From NCBI GenBank assembly GCA_963715985.1, contig CAVQSP010000017.1, positions 128,001-192,000 on the forward strand: 64,000 nucleotides of DNA, written 5' to 3'. The notes under the pieces are model-generated. The model had not been told where the DNA came from. It saw only the letters and a list, made by a program, of their open reading frames with translations, and ran no database searches. Within the stretch, counting starts at the first letter, position 1, and each line of letters opens with the position of its first letter. Source of the DNA: an uncultured Thermoleophilia bacterium (GTDB lineage Bacteria > Actinomycetota > Thermoleophilia > UBA2241). Positions 22,231 through 28,443 of this stretch are shown here, one piece after another. Position numbers and translations under genes: made by a program.

Positions 22231-22960
22231 TCAGAACGCCATCGGGTACGTGTTGGGCCACTGGCCGGGGCCCATGCCCTTGCTCAGGGCGAGCGCCGTG
22301 GCGCGGATCTGTGCCCAGCCGTCGTAGATGCTCTCGTGACGCCACGGGTTCCAGTGGCGCGCCCACTCGCTGTGCGTGTACTGGAAGAGGCCGTTGTAGA
22401 TGCCGCCGACGACGGCGGGGTTCCCGCCGGACTCGAGCACCATCATCCGGTACAGGCCTCCGGGGTCCACGCCGTACTTGCGGCCGGCGATGTCGACGAG
22501 GGGCCGCCAGGTGTGCGCTCGCGCCCAGCGCTCGATCTGGCGACGGCGGTGGAGCCGGGTGCTCAGGTGCTCGACCTTGAGCGCCAGGCGCCTCACGATG
22601 CGGCGGCGCTGCTCGGCGCGTTGCCTGAGCGCCGCGATCTCGTCGTCGCTGACCGCCCCGTCGCCGAGCAGGCGCGCGGCGAGCGCCTGGTCCATGCCGG
22701 GCGGGGGAGTGATGAGCGGCGCCGGCAGCACGCCGGGGGCGCCGTGGACGTCGGTCTGGAGGGCGAGGGCGGCGGCCAGGTCGGCGGCGGCCTGTGCGGA
22801 GCGGTCCCGAGCCTGGGCGAGCGACCTGCCGGGCGTGAGCGCGCTGCTCGACGAGCTGCGCCGTGGATGGGCTGGTGGCTCCGGCCACGGGGACCAGGGC
22901 GACGGCCATCAGGACGACGGCCGCAAGGGCGATGAGGGCGGTAGTGGTCCTGCGATACAC
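22231..22960 (-). CDS. Secreted SLT/transglycosylase-like (Rpf-like) protein with frameshift(s) in the N-terminal half
   Basis: Signal peptide 'MYRRTTTALIALAAVVLMAVALVPVAGA'; C-terminal 'MMVLESGGNP..YNGLFQY...W' lysozyme-like motif. Confidence 0.7.
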
Positions 22961-23277
22961 GATGTCCCTTCGACGGGGTGTCCCGGCGGGCAGCGGCACT
23001 GCCTGTGCCCGGCGGGCGGGTGGCGGCGCAGGCGTACCTCCGCCCGTACGGCGTGACCGTCACACACAAGGAGAGGGAGACGAATCTGCTGGGGGAGGGA
23101 CGCGCAAGGCGCCGCGGGCTCTGAGATTCGCCTTCCAGTGAAGCGCACACGGCGCCCACACGCAACCCGTGAGCCTTCTGGTGAGAACACCTCTCATCAT
23201 GGCCGGCAACGCTTTGAGGGGTCCGGACAGCGGGTACCGAGGGTGTGACGAGCCACGACGTGAAGGGAGCGTGCGGC

Positions 23278-23475
23278 ATGCTGTGCAGCATCTCGACAAA
23301 GCTCGGTGACGGGGACCTCAAGGAGATCGGCGCGCTCGAAGAGCAGCTCGGCGTGACTCTGCTGGCCTTCAACTGCCACCCGCTCGATCCGGCGGCCATC
23401 GACGATGGTCAGCTGTCGAAGATCAACGAGCTCGAGGAGAAGCTGGGCGTCTCGCTTGTCGCGGTGGGGTCCTAG
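23278..23475 (+). CDS. Small protein with twin LEExLG repeats, upstream of rubrerythrin
   Basis: GGGAG RBS; 65 aa; paralog of 11398-11658. Confidence 0.75.
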   Translation: MLCSISTKLGDGDLKEIGALEEQLGVTLLAFNCHPLDPAAIDDGQLSKINELEEKLGVSLVAVGS

Positions 23476-23524
23476 CCCACGGTAGACTTGCCCCAGCCAT
23501 CGATCACCCTCGAAGGGAGCAGCC

Positions 23525-24100
23525 ATGCCGGGCGTCAAGGGCACGCAGACCGAGAAGAACCTCCTCAAGGCGTTCGCCGGCGAGAGCCAAGCCCGCAACC
23601 GGTACACGTTCTTCGCGAAGCAGGCCTCCAAGGACGGGTACGAGCAGATCGGCGCCCTCTTCCTGGAGACGGCGGACAACGAGGGCCAGCACGCCAAGAC
23701 CTTCTTCCGGCACCTCGAGGGCGGCCTCGTCGAGATCACGGCCACCTACCCGGCCGGCGTGATCGGCACCACGGCGGAGAACCTGGCCGCCGCCGCCGAC
23801 GGCGAGAACGAGGAGTGGACCGACCTGTACCCGGCGTTCGCCGATGTGGCGGAGTCCGAGGGGCTCAAGGCGGTCGCCACCTCCTTCCGCCAGATCGCCA
23901 AGGTGGAGGCGAAGCACGAGGCGCGCTACCGCAAGCTGCTCGAGAACATCGAGACCGGCCAGGTCTTCGAGAAGCCCGAGCCGGTCAGCTGGATCTGCCG
24001 CAAGTGCGGGTACGTGCACCAGGGCGCCACGGCGCCCAAGGTCTGCCCGGCCTGCCAGCACCCGCAGGCGTACTTCGAGATCTACCCCGAGAACTACTGA
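23525..24100 (+). CDS. rbr: Rubrerythrin
   Basis: '[19 protein letters not shown]', ExxH motifs, C-terminal rubredoxin-like '[10 protein letters not shown]...[11 protein letters not shown]'. Confidence 0.95.
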
Positions 24101-24111
24101 CGCAGACAGAA

Positions 24112-24149
24112 GTGGCGGGCCCCGGGGAGGTCCGCCCAAGGCCCGCCAT
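24112..24149. terminator. Stem-loop between convergent rbr and iscU
   Basis: gtggcgggcc ... ggcccgccat inverted repeat. Confidence 0.5.
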
Positions 24150-24191
24150 CTGTGCGGCCGGCACCGCCTCGCGGCGTGCCGGCCGTGTCTT

Positions 24192-24998
24192 CTACTCGAG
24201 CACGACGAGCGCGTCCGCCGTCAGCTCGTACTCCTCGTCCTCGTTGAGGTCGTGGACGCGGATGCGCTCAAGTTCGCCCTCGCCGAGCAGCTCGAGCGGC
24301 TGCGCCTCGGTGAGCAGCTTGACGTCCGACAGTCGCAGCGCCGAACGCACGGCGCTGCTCACGCTGGGTTCCTTGCCGGTCGTCATGAGGACGACGCGCC
24401 CCGTGTGGTCGGTGAGGTCGATGGCCGTCTGCGCTGCGCGGTCGCCGGTGTCGAGGACGACGACGCGCTGGCCGGCCAGGGCGGAGAGGTCGTCGAGCGC
24501 CTTGTACACGCCCGCACCCTCGTAGTCGGCGAGGTTGCCGATCTCGACCTCCACCACTTCGGCCGGGCGCGGGTGGCAGCTCTTCTCGACCGGCGTCGTG
24601 GTGGCGTCCTCCGGCTTCACGCCCTCGCGCCAGTTCTTGATGGCCTCGTGCAGGGCGTCGGCCGCCAGGTTGCTGCAGTGCATCTTGATGGGCGGCAGGC
24701 CGTCGAGCGCGTCGGCCACGTCGCCGCGGCTCACCTTGAGGGCCTCGTCGAGCTTCATGCCGATCACGAGCTCCGTGACCATGCTCGAGGTGGCCACCGC
24801 CGACCCGCAGCCGAAGGTCTGGAACTTGATGTCCTCGATGCGGTCGTCGTCGGTGACCTTGATGTAGATGTCCATCATGTCGCCGCACACGGGGTTGCCG
24901 ACGCGGCCGACCGCGACGTTGGGGCCCTCCAGGGTGCCGACGTTGCGCGGGTTGCGGAAGTGCTCGAGGGTCTTCTCGCTGTACTGGGTCGATTTCAT
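24192..24998 (-). CDS. iscU: Fe-S scaffold IscU/NifU-N fused to a degenerate thioredoxin-reductase-like NAD(P)-binding domain
   Basis: 'YSEKTLEHFRNPRNVG', 'GNPVCGD', 'TFGCGSA', 'LPPIKMHCSNLA'; about 110-aa C-terminal Rossmann-like extension. Confidence 0.9.
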   Translation of the reverse strand: MKSTQYSEKTLEHFRNPRNVGTLEGPNVAVGRVGNPVCGDMMDIYIKVTDDDRIEDIKFQTFGCGSAVATSSMVTELVIGMKLDEALKVSRGDVADALDGLPPIKMHCSNLAADALHEAIKNWREGVKPEDATTTPVEKSCHPRPAEVVEVEIGNLADYEGAGVYKALDDLSALAGQRVVVLDTGDRAAQTAIDLTDHTGRVVLMTTGKEPSVSSAVRSALRLSDVKLLTEAQPLELLGEGELERIRVHDLNEDEEYELTADALVVLE

Positions 24999-25041
24999 GA
25001 CTGGTGCCTCTCGCTGGTGATGGTCCGTGCGTCGCGCCTGG

Positions 25042-26229
25042 TCAGGCCGGCGTCTTCGCCTTGTAGAGCGGGCTGAGCGTGCGCAGCCGCGTGATGACGC
25101 CGGGCAGGGCGGCCATGATGCGGTCCACGTCCTCCGCCTCGCTGAAGCGCCCGAACGTGAACTCCAGGGAGCCGTGCGCCTCCTCGTGGAGCAGCCCGCA
25201 GGAGATGAGCGTGTGCGAGGGCTCCAGCGTCTTGGAGCTGCAGGCCGAGCCCGTGGCCGCGGCGACGCCCTCGTCGCGCAGCGAGAGGATCATGGCCTCG
25301 CCCTCCACGCCGTCGAAGCGGAAGTGGGCGTTGTTGGGCAGGCGTCCGCCGGGGCGGTCGAGCGGGGCGCCGTTGAGGTGCGAGTCGGGGATCTCGGCGA
25401 GCACGCGCGCCACGAGGTCGTCGCGGATGCCGCGGATGCGCTCCACTTCGGCCGGCATCTCCGCCCTCATGATGTCGGCGGCGGCGGCCATGCCGGCGAT
25501 GGCCGCGAGGTCCTCGGTGCCCGAGCGCAGGCCGCGCTCCTGCCCGCCGCCCAGCAGCACCGGCGCCACCTGGACGCCCGCACGCACGTAGAGAGCGCCG
25601 ACCCCGCGCGGCCCGTAGATCTCGTTGGACGAGAGGCTCATCAGACTCACCGGGACGCTCTTCGTGTCGATCGGCAGCAGGCCCTCGGCGGCCACGGCGT
25701 CCGTGTGCAGAGCCACGCCGGTGCCGGCGAGCATCTCGGCGATCTCGGCGATGGGCTGCACGGTGCCGATCTCGTTGCTCGCCCAGCCCACGCTCACCAG
25801 GATCGTCTCGTCGGTGATGCGGGCGCGCAGCTTCTTGAGCGACACGCGCCCGTACAGGTCGATGGGCGCGCGCGTCACCTTGAACCCGTTCTTCTCCAGG
25901 TACTTGGCGATGTTGAGCACCGAGATGTGCTCGGCCTCGGTGATGACGACGTGATTGCCCTTGCGGCGGTTGCGCTGCGCGTAGCCGATGAGCGCGATGT
26001 TGCTGGCCTCCGTGGCGCCGGAGGTGAAGACGATCTCGCGCGGCTCGGCGCCGAAGAGCGCGGCGACCCGGCCGCGCATCTCCTCGAGCGCCGCCGTCGC
26101 CTCGTCGCCCACGGCGTGCAGCGAGGCGGCATTGCCGAAGGCGGTGCCGCCGAAGTACGGCAGCATGGCCTCGACGACGCGAGGGTCGACCGGCCGGGAG
26201 GACTGGTAGTCGGCGTAGACGACGGCCAT
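25042..26229 (-). CDS. iscS: IscS/NifS-like protein lacking the PLP Schiff-base lysine (A. fulgidus IscS type)
   Basis: 'FTSGATE', 'SNEIGTVQP', 'GGGQERGLRSGT' and 'TGSACSS' are present, but SxHK is replaced by 'SSNEIYGP' and DAxQ by 'DAVA'. Confidence 0.9.
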   Translation of the reverse strand: MAVVYADYQSSRPVDPRVVEAMLPYFGGTAFGNAASLHAVGDEATAALEEMRGRVAALFGAEPREIVFTSGATEASNIALIGYAQRNRRKGNHVVITEAEHISVLNIAKYLEKNGFKVTRAPIDLYGRVSLKKLRARITDETILVSVGWASNEIGTVQPIAEIAEMLAGTGVALHTDAVAAEGLLPIDTKSVPVSLMSLSSNEIYGPRGVGALYVRAGVQVAPVLLGGGQERGLRSGTEDLAAIAGMAAAADIMRAEMPAEVERIRGIRDDLVARVLAEIPDSHLNGAPLDRPGGRLPNNAHFRFDGVEGEAMILSLRDEGVAAATGSACSSKTLEPSHTLISCGLLHEEAHGSLEFTFGRFSEAEDVDRIMAALPGVITRLRTLSPLYKAKTPA

Positions 26230-26591
26230 CAGAAGTACATCGTGGCGCCTGCGTCGAGCGCGAGGTCGTTGAGCGTGGCGGCGCCCACGATCTTCACCCC
26301 GTCGATGAGCTCCACGGACTCCCAGCCGAGCATCTGCTTGGAGGCCTCGCACACGTACACGGTGATGCCCATGTCCAGGGTCTTCTGGAGCATCTCGGCG
26401 ACGCTGGGGAAGCTGCCGAGCTGCATCTTCTCCGCCTCGCCGGGCTTGAGCACGGTGAGTCCCATGCCCAGGTAGTACACGGCCGCGTCGAGACCCATGG
26501 CCTTGGCGCTCTGCGCGAGCACGAGCGGAGAGTACTGGCGCTCGGGCGCGTTGCTGGTCTGCACGTACAGGATGGAGTTCTCGTTCTTCAT
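26229..26591 (-). CDS. DsrE/DsrF-like sulfur relay protein
   Basis: 120 aa; 'GITVYVCEAS' conserved Cys, 'IVGAATL'; TGATG coupling to iscS. Confidence 0.8.
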   Translation of the reverse strand: MKNENSILYVQTSNAPERQYSPLVLAQSAKAMGLDAAVYYLGMGLTVLKPGEAEKMQLGSFPSVAEMLQKTLDMGITVYVCEASKQMLGWESVELIDGVKIVGAATLNDLALDAGATMYF

Positions 26592-26607
26592 GATCGTCGG
26601 CTCCTCG

Positions 26608-26850
26608 TCACTTGAGTCTGCGGATGCGGATGCGCAGCTGGTCGCCGTCATGGTCTACGTCCACCACTTCGTGGCCGGCGCGCTTGGCGAAGCGCGTGAG
26701 GTCCTCCTCCGCCGCCGGGTCGTCGGCGAACACCTCGAGCACCTCACCGATCTCGATGGCGTCGATGGCCTCCCGCGTCTGGAACAGCGGCTCGGGGCAG
26801 TACAGCCCGATGCAATCGAGTGTGGATGCTGGGGTCGTCTGGTCGCTCAT
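26608..26850 (-). CDS. tusA: TusA-family sulfur carrier protein
   Basis: 'LDCIGLYCPEP', 'GEVLEVFADDPAAEEDL'; GGAGGAG RBS. Confidence 0.9.
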   Translation of the reverse strand: MSDQTTPASTLDCIGLYCPEPLFQTREAIDAIEIGEVLEVFADDPAAEEDLTRFAKRAGHEVVDVDHDGDQLRIRIRRLK

Positions 26851-26984
26851 GCGTGCTCCTCCGGGGACGGTCATACCCAACCACTGCGGTCGGTATTCCC
26901 GCCCGAGGCTGAGTCGATGCATGGGCACGGGCGGACGGGCCCGCCGAGGGCGGGCCCTGCGTCACGCCGAGGGCGGGCCCGCGG

Positions 26985-27155
26985 TCACAGCGGCGGCAGA
27001 AGACCGGCGACGAAGGCGCCGGCGCTCTCCGGCGCCGCGACCACAAGGAGGACGGCAAGCGCCAGCAGGACGATGATGGCCAAGGCGATCGTCAACCAGT
27101 GGTGCTCCGTCTCCTTCGCGGTTCCGCCGTGCGATGTGGTGAGATGTGCGCGCAT
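26985..27155 (-). CDS. Small single-TM hypothetical protein
   Basis: GGAGTGAGG RBS; one hydrophobic helix 'WLTIALAIIVLLALAVLLVV'. Confidence 0.45.
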   Translation of the reverse strand: MRAHLTTSHGGTAKETEHHWLTIALAIIVLLALAVLLVVAAPESAGAFVAGLLPPL

Positions 27156-27365
27156 GGTCGCCTCACTCCGGTCGGCACTCCCTCTACTTGTGCTGTGCCC
27201 GCGCCGGCGGGCCGGCACACCGTTGGCCGCCGGCGCCCCGCCGGCGGCCGCTGTGGCAGGGTTCGCCCAACGCGGCGCGAAGCCGTAGACGGCCCGCCAG
27301 GGGCGGGCGCGGCCGCGCGTCCGCATTCATGCGCGTCGCCGGCCCGTCGATACACCTTCACGGGG

Positions 27366-28443
27366 ATGAACGTGCGCACGCACAGCAAGACGACGTTCGC
27401 GTCGGTGGTCGCCGCCGCCTTGATGGCGGCGGTCGCCGGAGCCTGCCTGCTCGCGGGCACTCCGGCGCCGGCCGGGGCGGCCCTGCGGGCCGCCGGCGCC
27501 GGCGTAGCGCCGGCCCACGTGGACGGCGTGGCGTCGTTGCAGGACCTGCAGAGCGAGGCGCGGCGCACCCGTGCCCAGATGCAGCAGCTCGACGCAGAGC
27601 AGGAGGTCATCACCGCAGAAGTGGGAGGAGGCGCGCCAGTACCTCGACAAGGTGAACGCGGACCTCGTGGCGGCGCGGCTCAGCCTCTCGCGGGCGCGCA
27701 ACGAGCTGGAGCGGCAGCGCACGCTCGTGGCCGGTCGCATGAAGACGATGTACAAGGCCGGTGACTACACGTGGCTGGACATCGTGACCTCGGCGACCAG
27801 CCTCGCCGAGGCCGAGACGGTGCTCGACTTCCTGCGCAGGATCTCGCTGCAGGACCGCCATGAGGAGACCGACCTCCAGGAGCTCACCGGCAAGGCGCGC
27901 AAGCTCGAGCACGACGTGGAGGCCGAGCGCAAGAAGGCGGTGACGGCACAGGTGGAGCTCGACGACCAGCGCGCCGCCCTGGACGCCAAGGTCGCCCAGC
28001 GCGCCGAGGTGCTCAAGACCCTGGTCACCCGCATCAAGAAGATCCTGTCCGCGCCGCTGCTGCTGATGAAGTCCGGCGGCAAGGTCACCCAGATCACCTG
28101 GGCCCAGGCCCTGCTGAAGAGCCTGGGCATGCCCATGACGGCCGACAACGTGGCCGCCGTGGTGGCCTGGGAGATGGCGGAAGGCGGGCACTGGTACAAC
28201 ACCGCCTACTACAACCCGCTGAACACCACACAATCCATGCCGGGTGCCACGGTGTTCAACTCGGTGGGCGTGAAGGCGTACACGAGCTGGGCCCAGGGCC
28301 TCAAGGCCACGGTCATCACCATGCACAACGGCTACTACGGCGGCATCCTCGAGGCGCTCAGCGGCGGCAACGACGCGCAGGCGGTGGCGGACGCCGTGGC
28401 CGCCTCGCCCTGGGGCACCGGCTCCTTCTCGCCGCGGCAGTGA
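27366..28443 (+). CDS. Secreted PcsB/CwlO-like coiled-coil protein with a C-terminal lysozyme-like domain (frameshift near 27615)
   Basis: Signal peptide; coiled coil with 'RMKTMYKAGDYTWLDIVTSATS'; C-terminal 'AWEMAEGG..YNPLNTT..GVKAYTSW..SPWGT'. Confidence 0.75.

Follow-up and report, generated by a model that had tools for sequence, protein, structure and literature searches.

Genes for the sulfur carrier TusA adjoin almost every IscS gene whose product lacks the cofactor-binding lysine: TusA is a near-universal partner of Lys-less IscS, and a DsrE3-like protein is a frequent but optional one. The window (the whole 64,000-nucleotide stretch of DNA analysed here) contains such a locus, tusA-dsrE-iscS*-iscU, in which IscS* denotes the Lys-less IscS. 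We propose, as a tentative reading that may well fail, that tusA-(dsrE3-like)-iscS*-iscU constitutes a separate iron-sulfur system, ancient and widespread, which would use carrier-delivered sulfane sulfur instead of cysteine and whose IscS* pocket would hold PMP or PLP. The module ranges over Asgard archaea, Bathyarchaeia, Thermoplasmatota, methanogen relatives, Archaeoglobi and several anaerobic bacterial lineages. While the Archaeoglobus fulgidus class of inactive IscS was already known, the conserved linkage to tusA and dsrE appears to be new; no description of it was found in the literature searched, though a 2019 review on TusA diversity may already touch on it.

Organization of the locus

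Read base for base, the sequence confirms the tight coupling of four minus-strand genes (Table 1) given in the original prediction: tusA and dsrE are separated by 16 nt, dsrE overlaps iscS* in TGATG, and iscU follows iscS* after 43 nt. A profile search of the window's open reading frames placed all four proteins above their Pfam cut-offs. The terminator-like hairpin is located 44 nt past the iscU stop codon, between iscU and a convergent rubrerythrin gene, and is weak evidence taken alone (one site versus 0.7 expected in shuffled sequences). On balance, we are inclined to regard tusA-dsrE-iscS*-iscU as a single operon, coding for a module of iron-sulfur cluster assembly whose sulfur would be mobilised by a persulfide relay.

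Table 1. Features of the tusA-dsrE-iscS*-iscU locus, in positions of the window
Feature	Position	Strand	Characteristics
tusA	26608-26850	minus	80 aa; Pfam TusA (PF01206) 83.8 bits, cut-off 28.6
dsrE-like (DsrE3-like)	26229-26591	minus	120 aa; Pfam DsrE 53.4 bits, DrsE_2 54.1 bits
iscS*	25042-26229	minus	395 aa; Pfam Aminotran_5 214 bits
iscU	24192-24998	minus	268 aa; Pfam NifU_N 156.7 bits
iscU N-terminal scaffold domain, residues 1-125	24624-24998	minus	Pfam NifU_N
iscU C-terminal extension, residues ~150-268	24195-24551	minus	predicted NADPH-binding-domain fold of thioredoxin-reductase-type flavoenzymes
Terminator-like GC-rich hairpin	24113-24148	minus	14 pairs, 11 of them G-C

Rfam gave no match at 22500-28000, and a scan for sigma-70-like promoters, which is uninformative for a high-GC actinobacterium, gave none at 23900-27400. 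Contigs assembled from three DNA runs and one RNA run cover the locus in short fragments only; among them, a 128-nt contig of the RNA library is identical to iscU at 24870-24997, a match that does not demonstrate transcription. A rubrerythrin gene adjoins the module in the window and in 4 of the 80 Lys-less loci described below.

IscS* belongs to the Lys-less class of A. fulgidus

As judged from its sequence, IscS* is a member of the A. fulgidus class of inactive, Lys-less IscS with the type-I IscS/NifS fold. Its best solved matches are the A. fulgidus IscS structures (pdb-codes: 4EB5, 4EB7, 4HVK; E 8.1e-127), 4EB5 being aligned end to end. Residue 203 is Glu (codon GAG at 25621-25623) and corresponds to Lys206 of E. 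coli IscS (pdb-code: 1P3W) and to Asp199 of A. fulgidus IscS; in the alignment to the E. coli enzyme, N202 is placed opposite His205 and A180 opposite Gln183. The resulting motifs, SSNE and DAVA, have SSND and DATA as their A. fulgidus counterparts, and Cys330 (codon 25240-25242) is still present in its ATGSACSS loop. Alignment to 1P3W and 4EB5 confirmed both altered motifs and the intact cysteine loop as they had been read before. Canonical cysteine desulfurases carry PLP on a conserved lysine, whose site is occupied by Glu in IscS*, and the NCBIfam equivalog scores stay under their cut-offs (NifS 427.8 versus 530.75; IscS 357.9 versus 643.2).

According to the accessible part of the literature on A. 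fulgidus IscS (PMC8918507), this protein has Asp199, binds PMP non-covalently, its D199K variant likewise holding PMP, and is devoid of desulfurase activity, its sulfur source being open. The background given in the original prediction, an acidic residue and no desulfurase activity, is correct to the extent that this source covers it. By analogy with its A. fulgidus relative, IscS* is probably without cysteine desulfurase activity as well.

The glutamate is not a sequencing error, since Lys is absent at this site from the 120 closest homologues and a contig of run X1, possibly the window's own source sample, spans the Glu203 codon without a difference there. These homologues, 81-100% identical and derived from other assemblies, have Glu in 24 and Asp in 94 cases; their motifs read SAND (61), SSND (32), SSNE (16), SANE (8) and SGND (1), two being unmatched by the pattern. 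Because the closest homologues are likewise devoid of the lysine, the Lys-less motif is conserved as a trait of the family, well outside what chance would give. A sequencing error or a decaying pseudogene, in favour of which nothing was found, is practically dismissed: Asp or Glu is found in all of 20 orthologues from the genus and 80 loci across phyla, the frame is intact and the mean column identity amounts to 64% across both domains. In a FastTree phylogeny of IscS, with the root set on a control tip, IscS* falls into a Lys-less clade of 77-79 tips with zero Lys and an SH-like support of 0.75-0.93.

Among 46 sequences from both domains, 58 columns of IscS* are invariant, including C330, H101, D177, S200 and N202; of the cofactor pocket, T73, H101, D177, S200 and N202 are invariant and D203 is nearly so. 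This pattern of conservation suggests that the cofactor, and perhaps some chemistry too, has been retained around the SSND motif, H101 and D177, which a picture of IscS* as a mere platform leaves unexplained. The label "pseudo-enzyme" may thus be too strong. One could even imagine that IscS* is alive, its SSN(D/E) pocket holding PMP or PLP non-covalently for a different reaction, such as one on sulfur bound to TusA or DsrE or on a non-cysteine substrate, with the carriers as substrates or products. The near-invariant pocket indeed looks like selection rather than decay, and some PMP-using enzymes of fold type I, such as ColD and the E1 dehydratases, also do without the lysine. The presence of PMP in the crystals of A. 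fulgidus IscS and of its D199K variant points in the same direction; however, no activity is reported for that protein in the accessible part of the source (PMC8918507), and the variants SA, NS, GP, SD and HT found at the two positions elsewhere in the Lys-less clade speak against a strict need for Asn-Asp. We therefore regard a different IscS* reaction as improbable.

Linkage of Lys-less IscS to tusA and dsrE

Lys-less loci were collected by scanning genome contigs for the degenerate DNA motif N-[DE]-x-Y-G-P-[KR]-G-x-G, which yielded 80 loci (56 archaeal, 24 bacterial), all 80 of them IscS-like. The control consisted of 80 loci obtained by the same pattern with H-K, derived from metagenome contigs as opposed to the genome contigs of the test set. 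Upstream regions of at least 900 nt were available for 69 Lys-less and 51 control loci. A tusA gene is present in 64 of these 69 Lys-less loci, 63 times upstream on the same strand, and a dsrE-like gene in 44, being absent from 25; both are located upstream on the same strand in 38 loci and neither is found in 4, whereas the lysine-bearing controls contain no tusA (0/51) and no dsrE (0/51). The Fisher p values of 1.5e-28 for tusA and 4.5e-15 for dsrE are overstated, since related loci are not independent. Where at least 500 nt downstream were available, iscU was found in 61 of 73 Lys-less loci. The linkage is seen in every taxon group sampled (among others Asgard archaea 14/14, Bathyarchaeia 15/17, Thermoplasmatota 6/6, Actinomycetota 5/5 and Deltaproteobacteria 5/5).

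At closer range, 20 of the 24 genomes searched in the window's genus contain an orthologue with at least 80% identity, all 20 with Asp at the site. The order tusA-dsrE-iscS*-iscU is preserved in 19 of them, the contig of the 20th ending within iscS, and the same four-gene cluster recurs outside the family, in genome G027 (66% identity). An "internal TGA" in the G027 orthologue, considered as a selenocysteine codon, turned out to be merely the stop codon of that gene, across which the aligner had continued, and an apparent DsrE-IscS fusion at locus L043 is a frameshifted assembly instead.

The linkage of TusA is not exclusive to Lys-less IscS. In three relatives tusA, detected with the same TusA model, precedes a lysine-bearing NifS, and TusA-IscS fusions with the lysine exist (P0204, P0205); TusA beside or fused to such lysine-bearing proteins is presumably an acceptor. 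Among the genes within 2 kb of the 80 Lys-less loci there is no recurrent rhodanese, YeeE-type transporter or other loader, nor any further recurrent gene family, the commonest occurring in 5, 4 and 4 loci; rubrerythrin is one of the two families found in four.

Sulfur genes elsewhere in module-bearing genomes

On contig C20, the genome of the window encodes a canonical IscS (DAVQ/SGHK/GSAC) with its own IscU; at a genome completeness of 88.8%, SufB/D was not found. Four of five other module-bearing genomes contain a Lys-bearing IscS-like or SufS-like gene, and none was found in that of Geoglobus, whose completeness is uncertain. The original prediction is supported in part: the linkage of tusA and dsrE to Lys-less IscS, singled out beforehand as the point at which it could break, was clearly borne out by the survey. 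A sulfur flow from TusA/DsrE into IscS*/IscU and a source other than cysteine are hypothetical, and an organism independent of desulfurases is doubtful in view of the canonical IscS-IscU pair. With this pair present, iron-sulfur synthesis in these cells can be explained without the module.

Since canonical IscS-IscU or Lys-bearing genes occur in module-bearing genomes, cysteine is possibly still the ultimate sulfur source. The canonical desulfurase encoded on C20 would load TusA, and TusA and DsrE would shuttle the sulfur to IscS*-IscU as a second, buffered line. Such a scheme could draw on the IscS-to-TusA transfer established in E. coli, as stated in the accessible part of PMC13066941, and is in keeping with the existence of TusA fused to lysine-bearing IscS. 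However, the route appears roundabout because the canonical IscS already adjoins its own IscU; moreover, the lysine-bearing IscS genes of the window's genome, of G044 and of G045 have neither tusA nor dsrE as a neighbour, and the negative search in Geoglobus also speaks against it, subject to the completeness of that genome. A cysteine-fed module is thus rather unlikely. The window's genome contains four copies of TusA, another of which adjoins tRNA-thiolation genes; this arrangement suggests that each copy has a role of its own.

The carriers TusA and DsrE

TusA bears its active-site Cys18 in a CPEP motif (codon 26797-26799). C18, P19 and P21 are invariant among 46 cognate TusA sequences, and CPxP is present in 67 of 67 TusA open reading frames adjoining Lys-less IscS. 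The DsrE-like protein has an invariant Cys81 (codon 26349-26351) and a T106-L-N-D109 motif. Its closest solved relative in the profile search is 3MC3 (E 5.9e-22), with C81 aligned to a Cys of that structure, which is named a DsrE3A trimer in the accessible text of PMC11094781. The NCBIfam DsrE2 equivalog score lies far under its cut-off (35.6 versus 210), so the protein is not DsrE2. The protein, probably a trimer, was modelled as three copies, a number set as input, with a pLDDT of 91-92.

The modelled complex of the DsrE trimer with TusA obtained a median score of 0.76, compared to 0.01 for the best of three controls, and reaches a calibration mark attained for 116 of 157 solved complexes and for 2 of 215 mismatched pairs. 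The model runs have at least 91% of their contacts in common, with a partner pLDDT of at least 84. The predicted interface includes residues 81-83 and 100-106 of DsrE and residues 17-19 and 44-46 of TusA, so that both conserved cysteines, Cys81 and Cys18, are located inside it. As no solved entry containing relatives of both TusA and DsrE was found, this result is unlikely to reproduce a memorized structure.

IscU and its C-terminal domain

The ligand residues C38, D40, C64, H107 and C108 are present in IscU and invariant in 23 long IscU sequences. The best solved match of the scaffold domain is 7C8M (E 6e-51), and chain C of 4EB5 is matched with E 1.8e-44. For the C-terminal extension, the NCBIfam profile TRX_reduct matches residues 154-265 (E 1.8e-8), and a sequence search leads to residues 128-244 of the FNR 3LZW. 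Its model (pLDDT ~90) superimposes in Foldseek onto 3LZW (rmsd 1.8, 118 columns), 6GAS and 3F8P, with rmsd values of 1.5-1.8 over ~118 columns. Thioredoxin reductases and FNRs of the thioredoxin-reductase type are characterized by a FAD domain, a GxGxxG nucleotide motif and a redox CxxC. In the extension, the Pfam and NCBIfam profiles detect no FAD domain, the domain has zero conserved Cys, and a conserved pattern "D.Gd.s" occupies what we take to be the GxGxxG position. According to the model, the extension is an NADPH-domain fold without the full features of either flavoenzyme.

The intact ligand set also bears on the idea that the module traffics or buffers sulfane sulfur, for tRNA or cofactor thiolation, detoxification or sensing, with IscU and IscS* as mere carriers or as a cluster-based sensor. 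The TusA and DsrE families do take part in the thiolation of tRNA, the synthesis of the molybdenum cofactor and dissimilatory sulfur relays, as described in the accessible part of PMC11094781, and the adjoining rubrerythrin genes mentioned above can be counted in its favour. Against it stand the retention of all cluster ligands in IscU and the [2Fe-2S] cluster bound by the A. fulgidus IscS-IscU complex, as given in the accessible text of PMC13066941. In addition, the 2-kb surroundings of the module contain no recurrent thiolation enzyme, and the tRNA-thiolation genes of this genome have a separate TusA as their neighbour. We consider such a trafficking role to be hardly probable.

A scenario for carrier-fed cluster assembly

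Owing to the replacement of Lys206 by Glu here, and by Asp in most relatives, IscS* cannot form the PLP internal aldimine. In the preferred scenario of a carrier-fed iron-sulfur system, a persulfide relay would replace the sulfur-mobilising chemistry of IscS in the module. TusA and DsrE would carry sulfane sulfur as persulfides of Cys18 and Cys81, swap it between each other and hand it over to Cys330 of IscS* or straight to IscU. With its dimeric fold, cofactor pocket and mobile Cys330 loop, IscS* might act as a platform passing sulfur to the adjacent IscU and might help to ligate the nascent [2Fe-2S] cluster. The sampled module-bearing lineages are mostly known as anaerobes; for this reason, environmental or metabolic sulfane sulfur, in the form of polysulfide, thiosulfate or sulfide-derived persulfide, is judged the most likely source.

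The route of [2Fe-2S] assembly on an A. fulgidus-type IscS-IscU without desulfurase activity is treated as an open question in the accessible part of the review literature (PMC8918507). A near-obligatory tusA neighbour, often joined by dsrE, provides a definite candidate, open to testing, for the sulfur donor that is missing; if true, carrier-fed sulfur would explain how these pairs obtain their sulfur. The linkage also suggests possible identities for two of the four extra genes in Methanosarcina. Because the module occurs in lineages central to the debates on early metabolism and the origin of eukaryotes (Asgard archaea, Bathyarchaeia), the proposal also bears on iron-sulfur biogenesis in sulfide-rich, anoxic settings.

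Comparison with known systems

The closest known system is the A. fulgidus IscS-IscU pair (4EB5, 4EB7, 4HVK; D199K variant 4R5F), which shares with the window the acidic residue for Lys, Ala for Gln, the cysteine loop and an adjoining iscU. The window differs by Glu instead of Asp, a bacterial host, an added C-terminal domain of 120 residues in IscU and a dsrE-like gene. The latter is lacking in Geoglobus, a member of the Archaeoglobaceae and thus of the same family as A. fulgidus; the Geoglobus locus reads tusA-iscS*-iscU. The accessible text of PMC8918507 regards the A. fulgidus pair as consisting of two proteins, takes free sulfide as a guess for the source and does not mention TusA.

MIS (MisS-MisU) resembles the module in consisting of an IscS-like and an IscU-like protein without chaperones or A-type carriers. 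Called the least studied iron-sulfur system in reviews, it is described in the accessible parts of PMC13066941 and PMC12192291 from archaea and anaerobes, with a cysteine desulfurase that is functional and "no additional components". In contrast, the module has a desulfurase homologue without the lysine and two added sulfur carriers, and hence falls outside the definition of MIS; if the proposal is true, a carrier-fed branch would be added to the MIS/ISC/NIF family.

The E. coli IscS-TusA relay (3LVJ, 3LVK) is built from the same TusA family (profile E 2.2e-19) and a type-I IscS. There, following the accessible account in PMC13066941, the persulfide is generated by active IscS and taken over by TusA, which serves the thiolation of tRNA. 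Since IscS* probably cannot make a persulfide, the module would require the reversed flow, from TusA towards IscS*. A pairing of TusA with a DsrE3-type carrier is shared with the TusA-DsrE2/DsrE3 relays of the sHdr and rDsr pathways, 3MC3 again being the nearest solved relative; as far as PMC11094781 was accessible, these relays pass sulfane sulfur or thiosulfonate between cysteines, with DsrE3 proteins as trimers. They feed sulfur-oxidising enzymes, whereas the module adjoins IscS* and IscU, and no shdr or dsr genes were found beside it in the 2-kb neighbourhood. The SufS-SufE/SufU-SufBCD systems, finally, share the basic strategy of an intermediate sulfurtransferase between source and scaffold, but are composed of unrelated carrier families, an active desulfurase and a different scaffold.

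The tusA-dsrE-iscS*-iscU operon

Four closely spaced genes on the minus strand of the window encode TusA, a DsrE-like protein, an IscS devoid of the Schiff-base lysine (IscS*) and IscU. A gap of 16 nt separates tusA from the dsrE-like gene, which overlaps iscS* by TGATG, and 43 nt lie between iscS* and iscU; re-reading of coordinates and gaps returned a layout identical to that of the original prediction. A terminator-like hairpin is found 3' of iscU.

Features of the operon, its surroundings and the further TusA loci of the same genome
Feature	Position	Strand	Remark
tusA	26608-26850	minus	above Pfam curated cut-off
dsrE-like	26229-26591	minus	above Pfam curated cut-off
iscS*	25042-26229	minus	above Pfam curated cut-off
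E203 codon of iscS*	25621-25623	minus	GAG
iscU	24192-24998	minus	above Pfam curated cut-off
IscU C-terminal domain	24195-24551	minus	residues ~150-268
rubrerythrin gene	23525-24100	plus	convergent with iscU
76-aa ORF	23245-23475	plus	upstream of rubrerythrin
second TusA (L279)	G000:C20:41878-45084		contig C20 of the window's genome, G000
third TusA domain (L280)	G000:C10:132220-135429		contig C10 of the window's genome, G000

The C-terminal part of IscU folds like the NADPH domain found in thioredoxin-reductase-type enzymes, with 'D.Gd.s' in place of GxGxxG; the FAD domain and a conserved Cys are absent. Among the matches listed in the genome scan described below, a long IscU (at least 240 aa) occurs at 26 of the 67 Lys-less loci whose downstream DNA extends to 900 nt or more, mostly in Asgard, Actinomycetota, Deltaproteobacteria and Aminicenantes. 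At 4 of the 80 loci among these matches, L095 being one of them, a rubrerythrin-like ORF is likewise present no more than 2 kb from the module. The 76-aa ORF contains the internal repeat L-x-E-I/L-x-x-L-E-E-x-L-G-V-x-L, and a Pfam match to it was not found.

IscS* and the lysine-less class

Alignment to the structures of E. coli IscS (1P3W) and A. fulgidus IscS (4EB5) places E203 of IscS* at the site of Lys206 and Asp199, respectively, as originally predicted. N202 corresponds to E. coli His205, A180 to Gln183, H101 to His104 and D177 to Asp180, and C330 sits in the retained GSACSS loop. The protein falls short of the NCBIfam equivalog cut-offs for NifS and IscS by ~100 and ~285 bits. The glutamate is genuine, in agreement with the earlier claim: the best 120 database homologues (81-100% identity, from other assemblies) carry Glu in 24 cases (16 SSNE, 8 SANE), Asp in 94 and Lys in none, the remaining 2 being outside the residue pattern used, and within the genus an orthologue of at least 80% identity was detected in 20 of 24 other genomes searched, with Asp in 20/20. 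These homologues and orthologues exclude a sequencing error or pseudogene. A contig from a wetland run also spans the E203 codon without change; this run may, however, be the source sample.

The closest solved relative of IscS* is A. fulgidus IscS (E 8.1e-127). Its primary studies are reportedly Marinoni 2012, Yamanaka 2013 and Pagnier 2015. Excerpts of a review describe it as a PMP-bound protein with Asp199 and no desulfurase activity (PMC8918507). It has been proposed to ligate the [2Fe-2S] cluster of IscU through a Cys of its own. Excerpts of two papers treat assembly without a desulfurase as an open question, free sulfide being a guess (PMC8918507; PMC7585200).

Among the best 150 cluster representatives at 50% identity, the lysine is present in 131 and absent from 19, nearly all of which also lack the Gln. 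In FastTree phylogenies of 257-264 sequences, the window's protein falls in a Lys-less clade of 77-79 tips with Lys in none (support 0.75-0.93). Outside this clade lie a second, smaller Lys-less group and two ND-type representatives. This second clade (P0173, P0200, P0211, P0224, P0229; motifs QG, HT, QQ, NT, GR; support 0.99) is separate from the main one. Natural fusions of lysine-bearing relatives were also observed, namely TusA-IscS, IscS-TusA, IscS-IscU, Rrf2-IscS, Se/S-carrier-IscS and molybdopterin oxidoreductase-IscS (P0204, P0205, P0134, P0220, P0145, P0152, P0222, P0216, P0225).

An alignment of 46 Lys-less sequences, drawn from both Archaea and Bacteria, has 58 invariant columns, among them T73, H101, D177, S200, N202 and C330, with D203 nearly so. 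Judged from these columns, IscS* is conserved and not decaying. The Lys-less class thus retains the residues with which E. coli IscS binds the ring and phosphate of its cofactor, in line with the PMP in the A. fulgidus crystal described in the excerpted review (PMC8918507). Both the invariance of T73, H101, D177, S200 and N202 and the presence of PMP are points in favour of a possible retained role of the pocket, e.g. in cofactor-based chemistry.

Linkage of the carriers to Lys-less IscS

One genome per prokaryotic species was scanned for DNA encoding N-[DE]-x-Y-G-P-[KR]-G-x-G, a motif set without reference to neighbour genes. At least 119 stretches matched, and 80 loci, the first found and not a random draw, were taken with 2 kb on each side; each of these 80 listed matches has an IscS-like product bearing S[SAC]N[DE]xYGP, and 56 are archaeal and 24 bacterial by record titles. 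Neighbours were identified by searching all ORFs with profiles seeded by the four proteins of the operon.

The predicted co-occurrence was recovered. Among the matches listed, tusA adjoins Lys-less IscS at 64 of the 69 loci for which 900 nt or more of upstream sequence were available (63 upstream on the same strand) and a dsrE-like gene at 44 (39 upstream on the same strand); both carriers lie upstream on the same strand at 38 and neither is present at 4. For iscU the count is 61 of 73 loci with at least 500 nt downstream, 55 directly downstream, and carrier linkage was seen in each taxon group, again among the matches listed. In contrast, neither tusA nor dsrE was found beside lysine-bearing IscS at any of 51 control loci with at least 900 nt upstream, drawn from 80 metagenome loci matching the pattern with H-K and hence from a collection different from the species genomes. 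The Fisher p values of 1.5e-28 and 4.5e-15 are overstated, since kinship between genomes violates independence. The TusA profile does recognise other TusA proteins: it detects tusA ahead of lysine-bearing NifS in three relatives (E 1e-18 to 1e-23). No carrier genes were found beside the lysine-bearing paralogues of the window's genome and of two other module genomes (G044, G045). At L033, L034 and L036, from another family of the same class, tusA precedes a lysine-bearing NifS-IscU pair, and so its linkage is not confined to the Lys-less class. Apparent frameshifts in dsrE and iscU of L043 and in iscU of L015 are probably assembly errors.

The CPxP cysteine is present in 67/67 TusA ORFs beside Lys-less IscS among the matches listed, with C18, P19 and P21 invariant. 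The DsrE-like proteins constitute a tight subfamily (69% mean column identity; C81 and T106-L-N-D109 invariant) whose closest solved relative is 3MC3 (E 5.9e-22), a DsrE3A trimer according to an excerpt of Tanabe et al. (PMC11094781). A four-chain model of three DsrE and one TusA, based on our own alignments and therefore only roughly calibrated, scored 0.76 in the median (0.80, 0.51 and 0.76 in the single runs), against 0.01 for the highest-scoring of three controls; the calibration mark is attained by 116/157 solved complexes and 2/215 mismatched pairs. At least 91% of contacts recur between runs, and the partner pLDDT is 84 or higher. The modelled interface comprises residues 81-83 and 100-106/109 of one DsrE subunit, 24-33 of its neighbour, and 17-19 and 44-46 of TusA; the active cysteines of the two proteins and the two invariant motifs all fall within it. 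The model supports the idea that TusA and DsrE may bind each other and pass sulfur from Cys to Cys. A solved entry with relatives of both families was not found.

Sulfur source and mechanistic implications

In the window's genome (88.8% complete), no match to SufB/D (PF01458) was obtained, and the Fe-S assembly genes of the families searched (PF00266, PF01458, PF01592) are two IscS-IscU pairs only, the second consisting of a canonical IscS (DAVQ, SGHK, GSAC) and a 143-aa IscU on contig C20. Of five other module genomes, two carry a SufS-like gene and two a canonical IscS; neither was found in the fifth, a Geoglobus MAG of completeness not established. Given these lysine-bearing genes, the module is usually an addition to the cysteine-based route and not a replacement. 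They would also fit a scenario in which cysteine is still the source, a canonical desulfurase loading TusA and the carriers shuttling sulfur to IscS*-IscU; however, the Geoglobus MAG argues against it, and we regard it as rather improbable.

Two further TusA loci were noted. At L279 the gene adjoins an NFACT-R_2 RNA-binding domain protein and a PP-loop ThiI/tRNA_Me_trans-like protein, likely an RNA-thiolation set. At L280 the domain ends a 234-aa ORF adjoining a Fer4_20/NAD-binding flavoprotein, which could be a sulfur-reducing or sulfur-loading partner.

We lean slightly towards a scenario in which TusA, often with a DsrE3-like trimer, would carry sulfane sulfur, not derived from cysteine, to a non-catalytic IscS*, whose Cys330 loop would take it up for transfer to IscU. 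Our analysis establishes what the module consists of, which of its residues are conserved and that its linkage is specific, as well as the carrier pair as modelled; from these we infer flow and source. Lys-less IscS, TusA and DsrE are each familiar from earlier work, and no literature linking the first with the others was found in a search that did not cover a 2019 TusA review. For SMS, complementation has been carried out in E. coli devoid of ISC and SUF and sustained by the mevalonate bypass (PMC12192291). The minimal ISC system (MisS-MisU) is described in excerpts of two reviews with 'no additional components' (PMC13066941, PMC12192291), in contrast to the module with its TusA and DsrE-like carriers.
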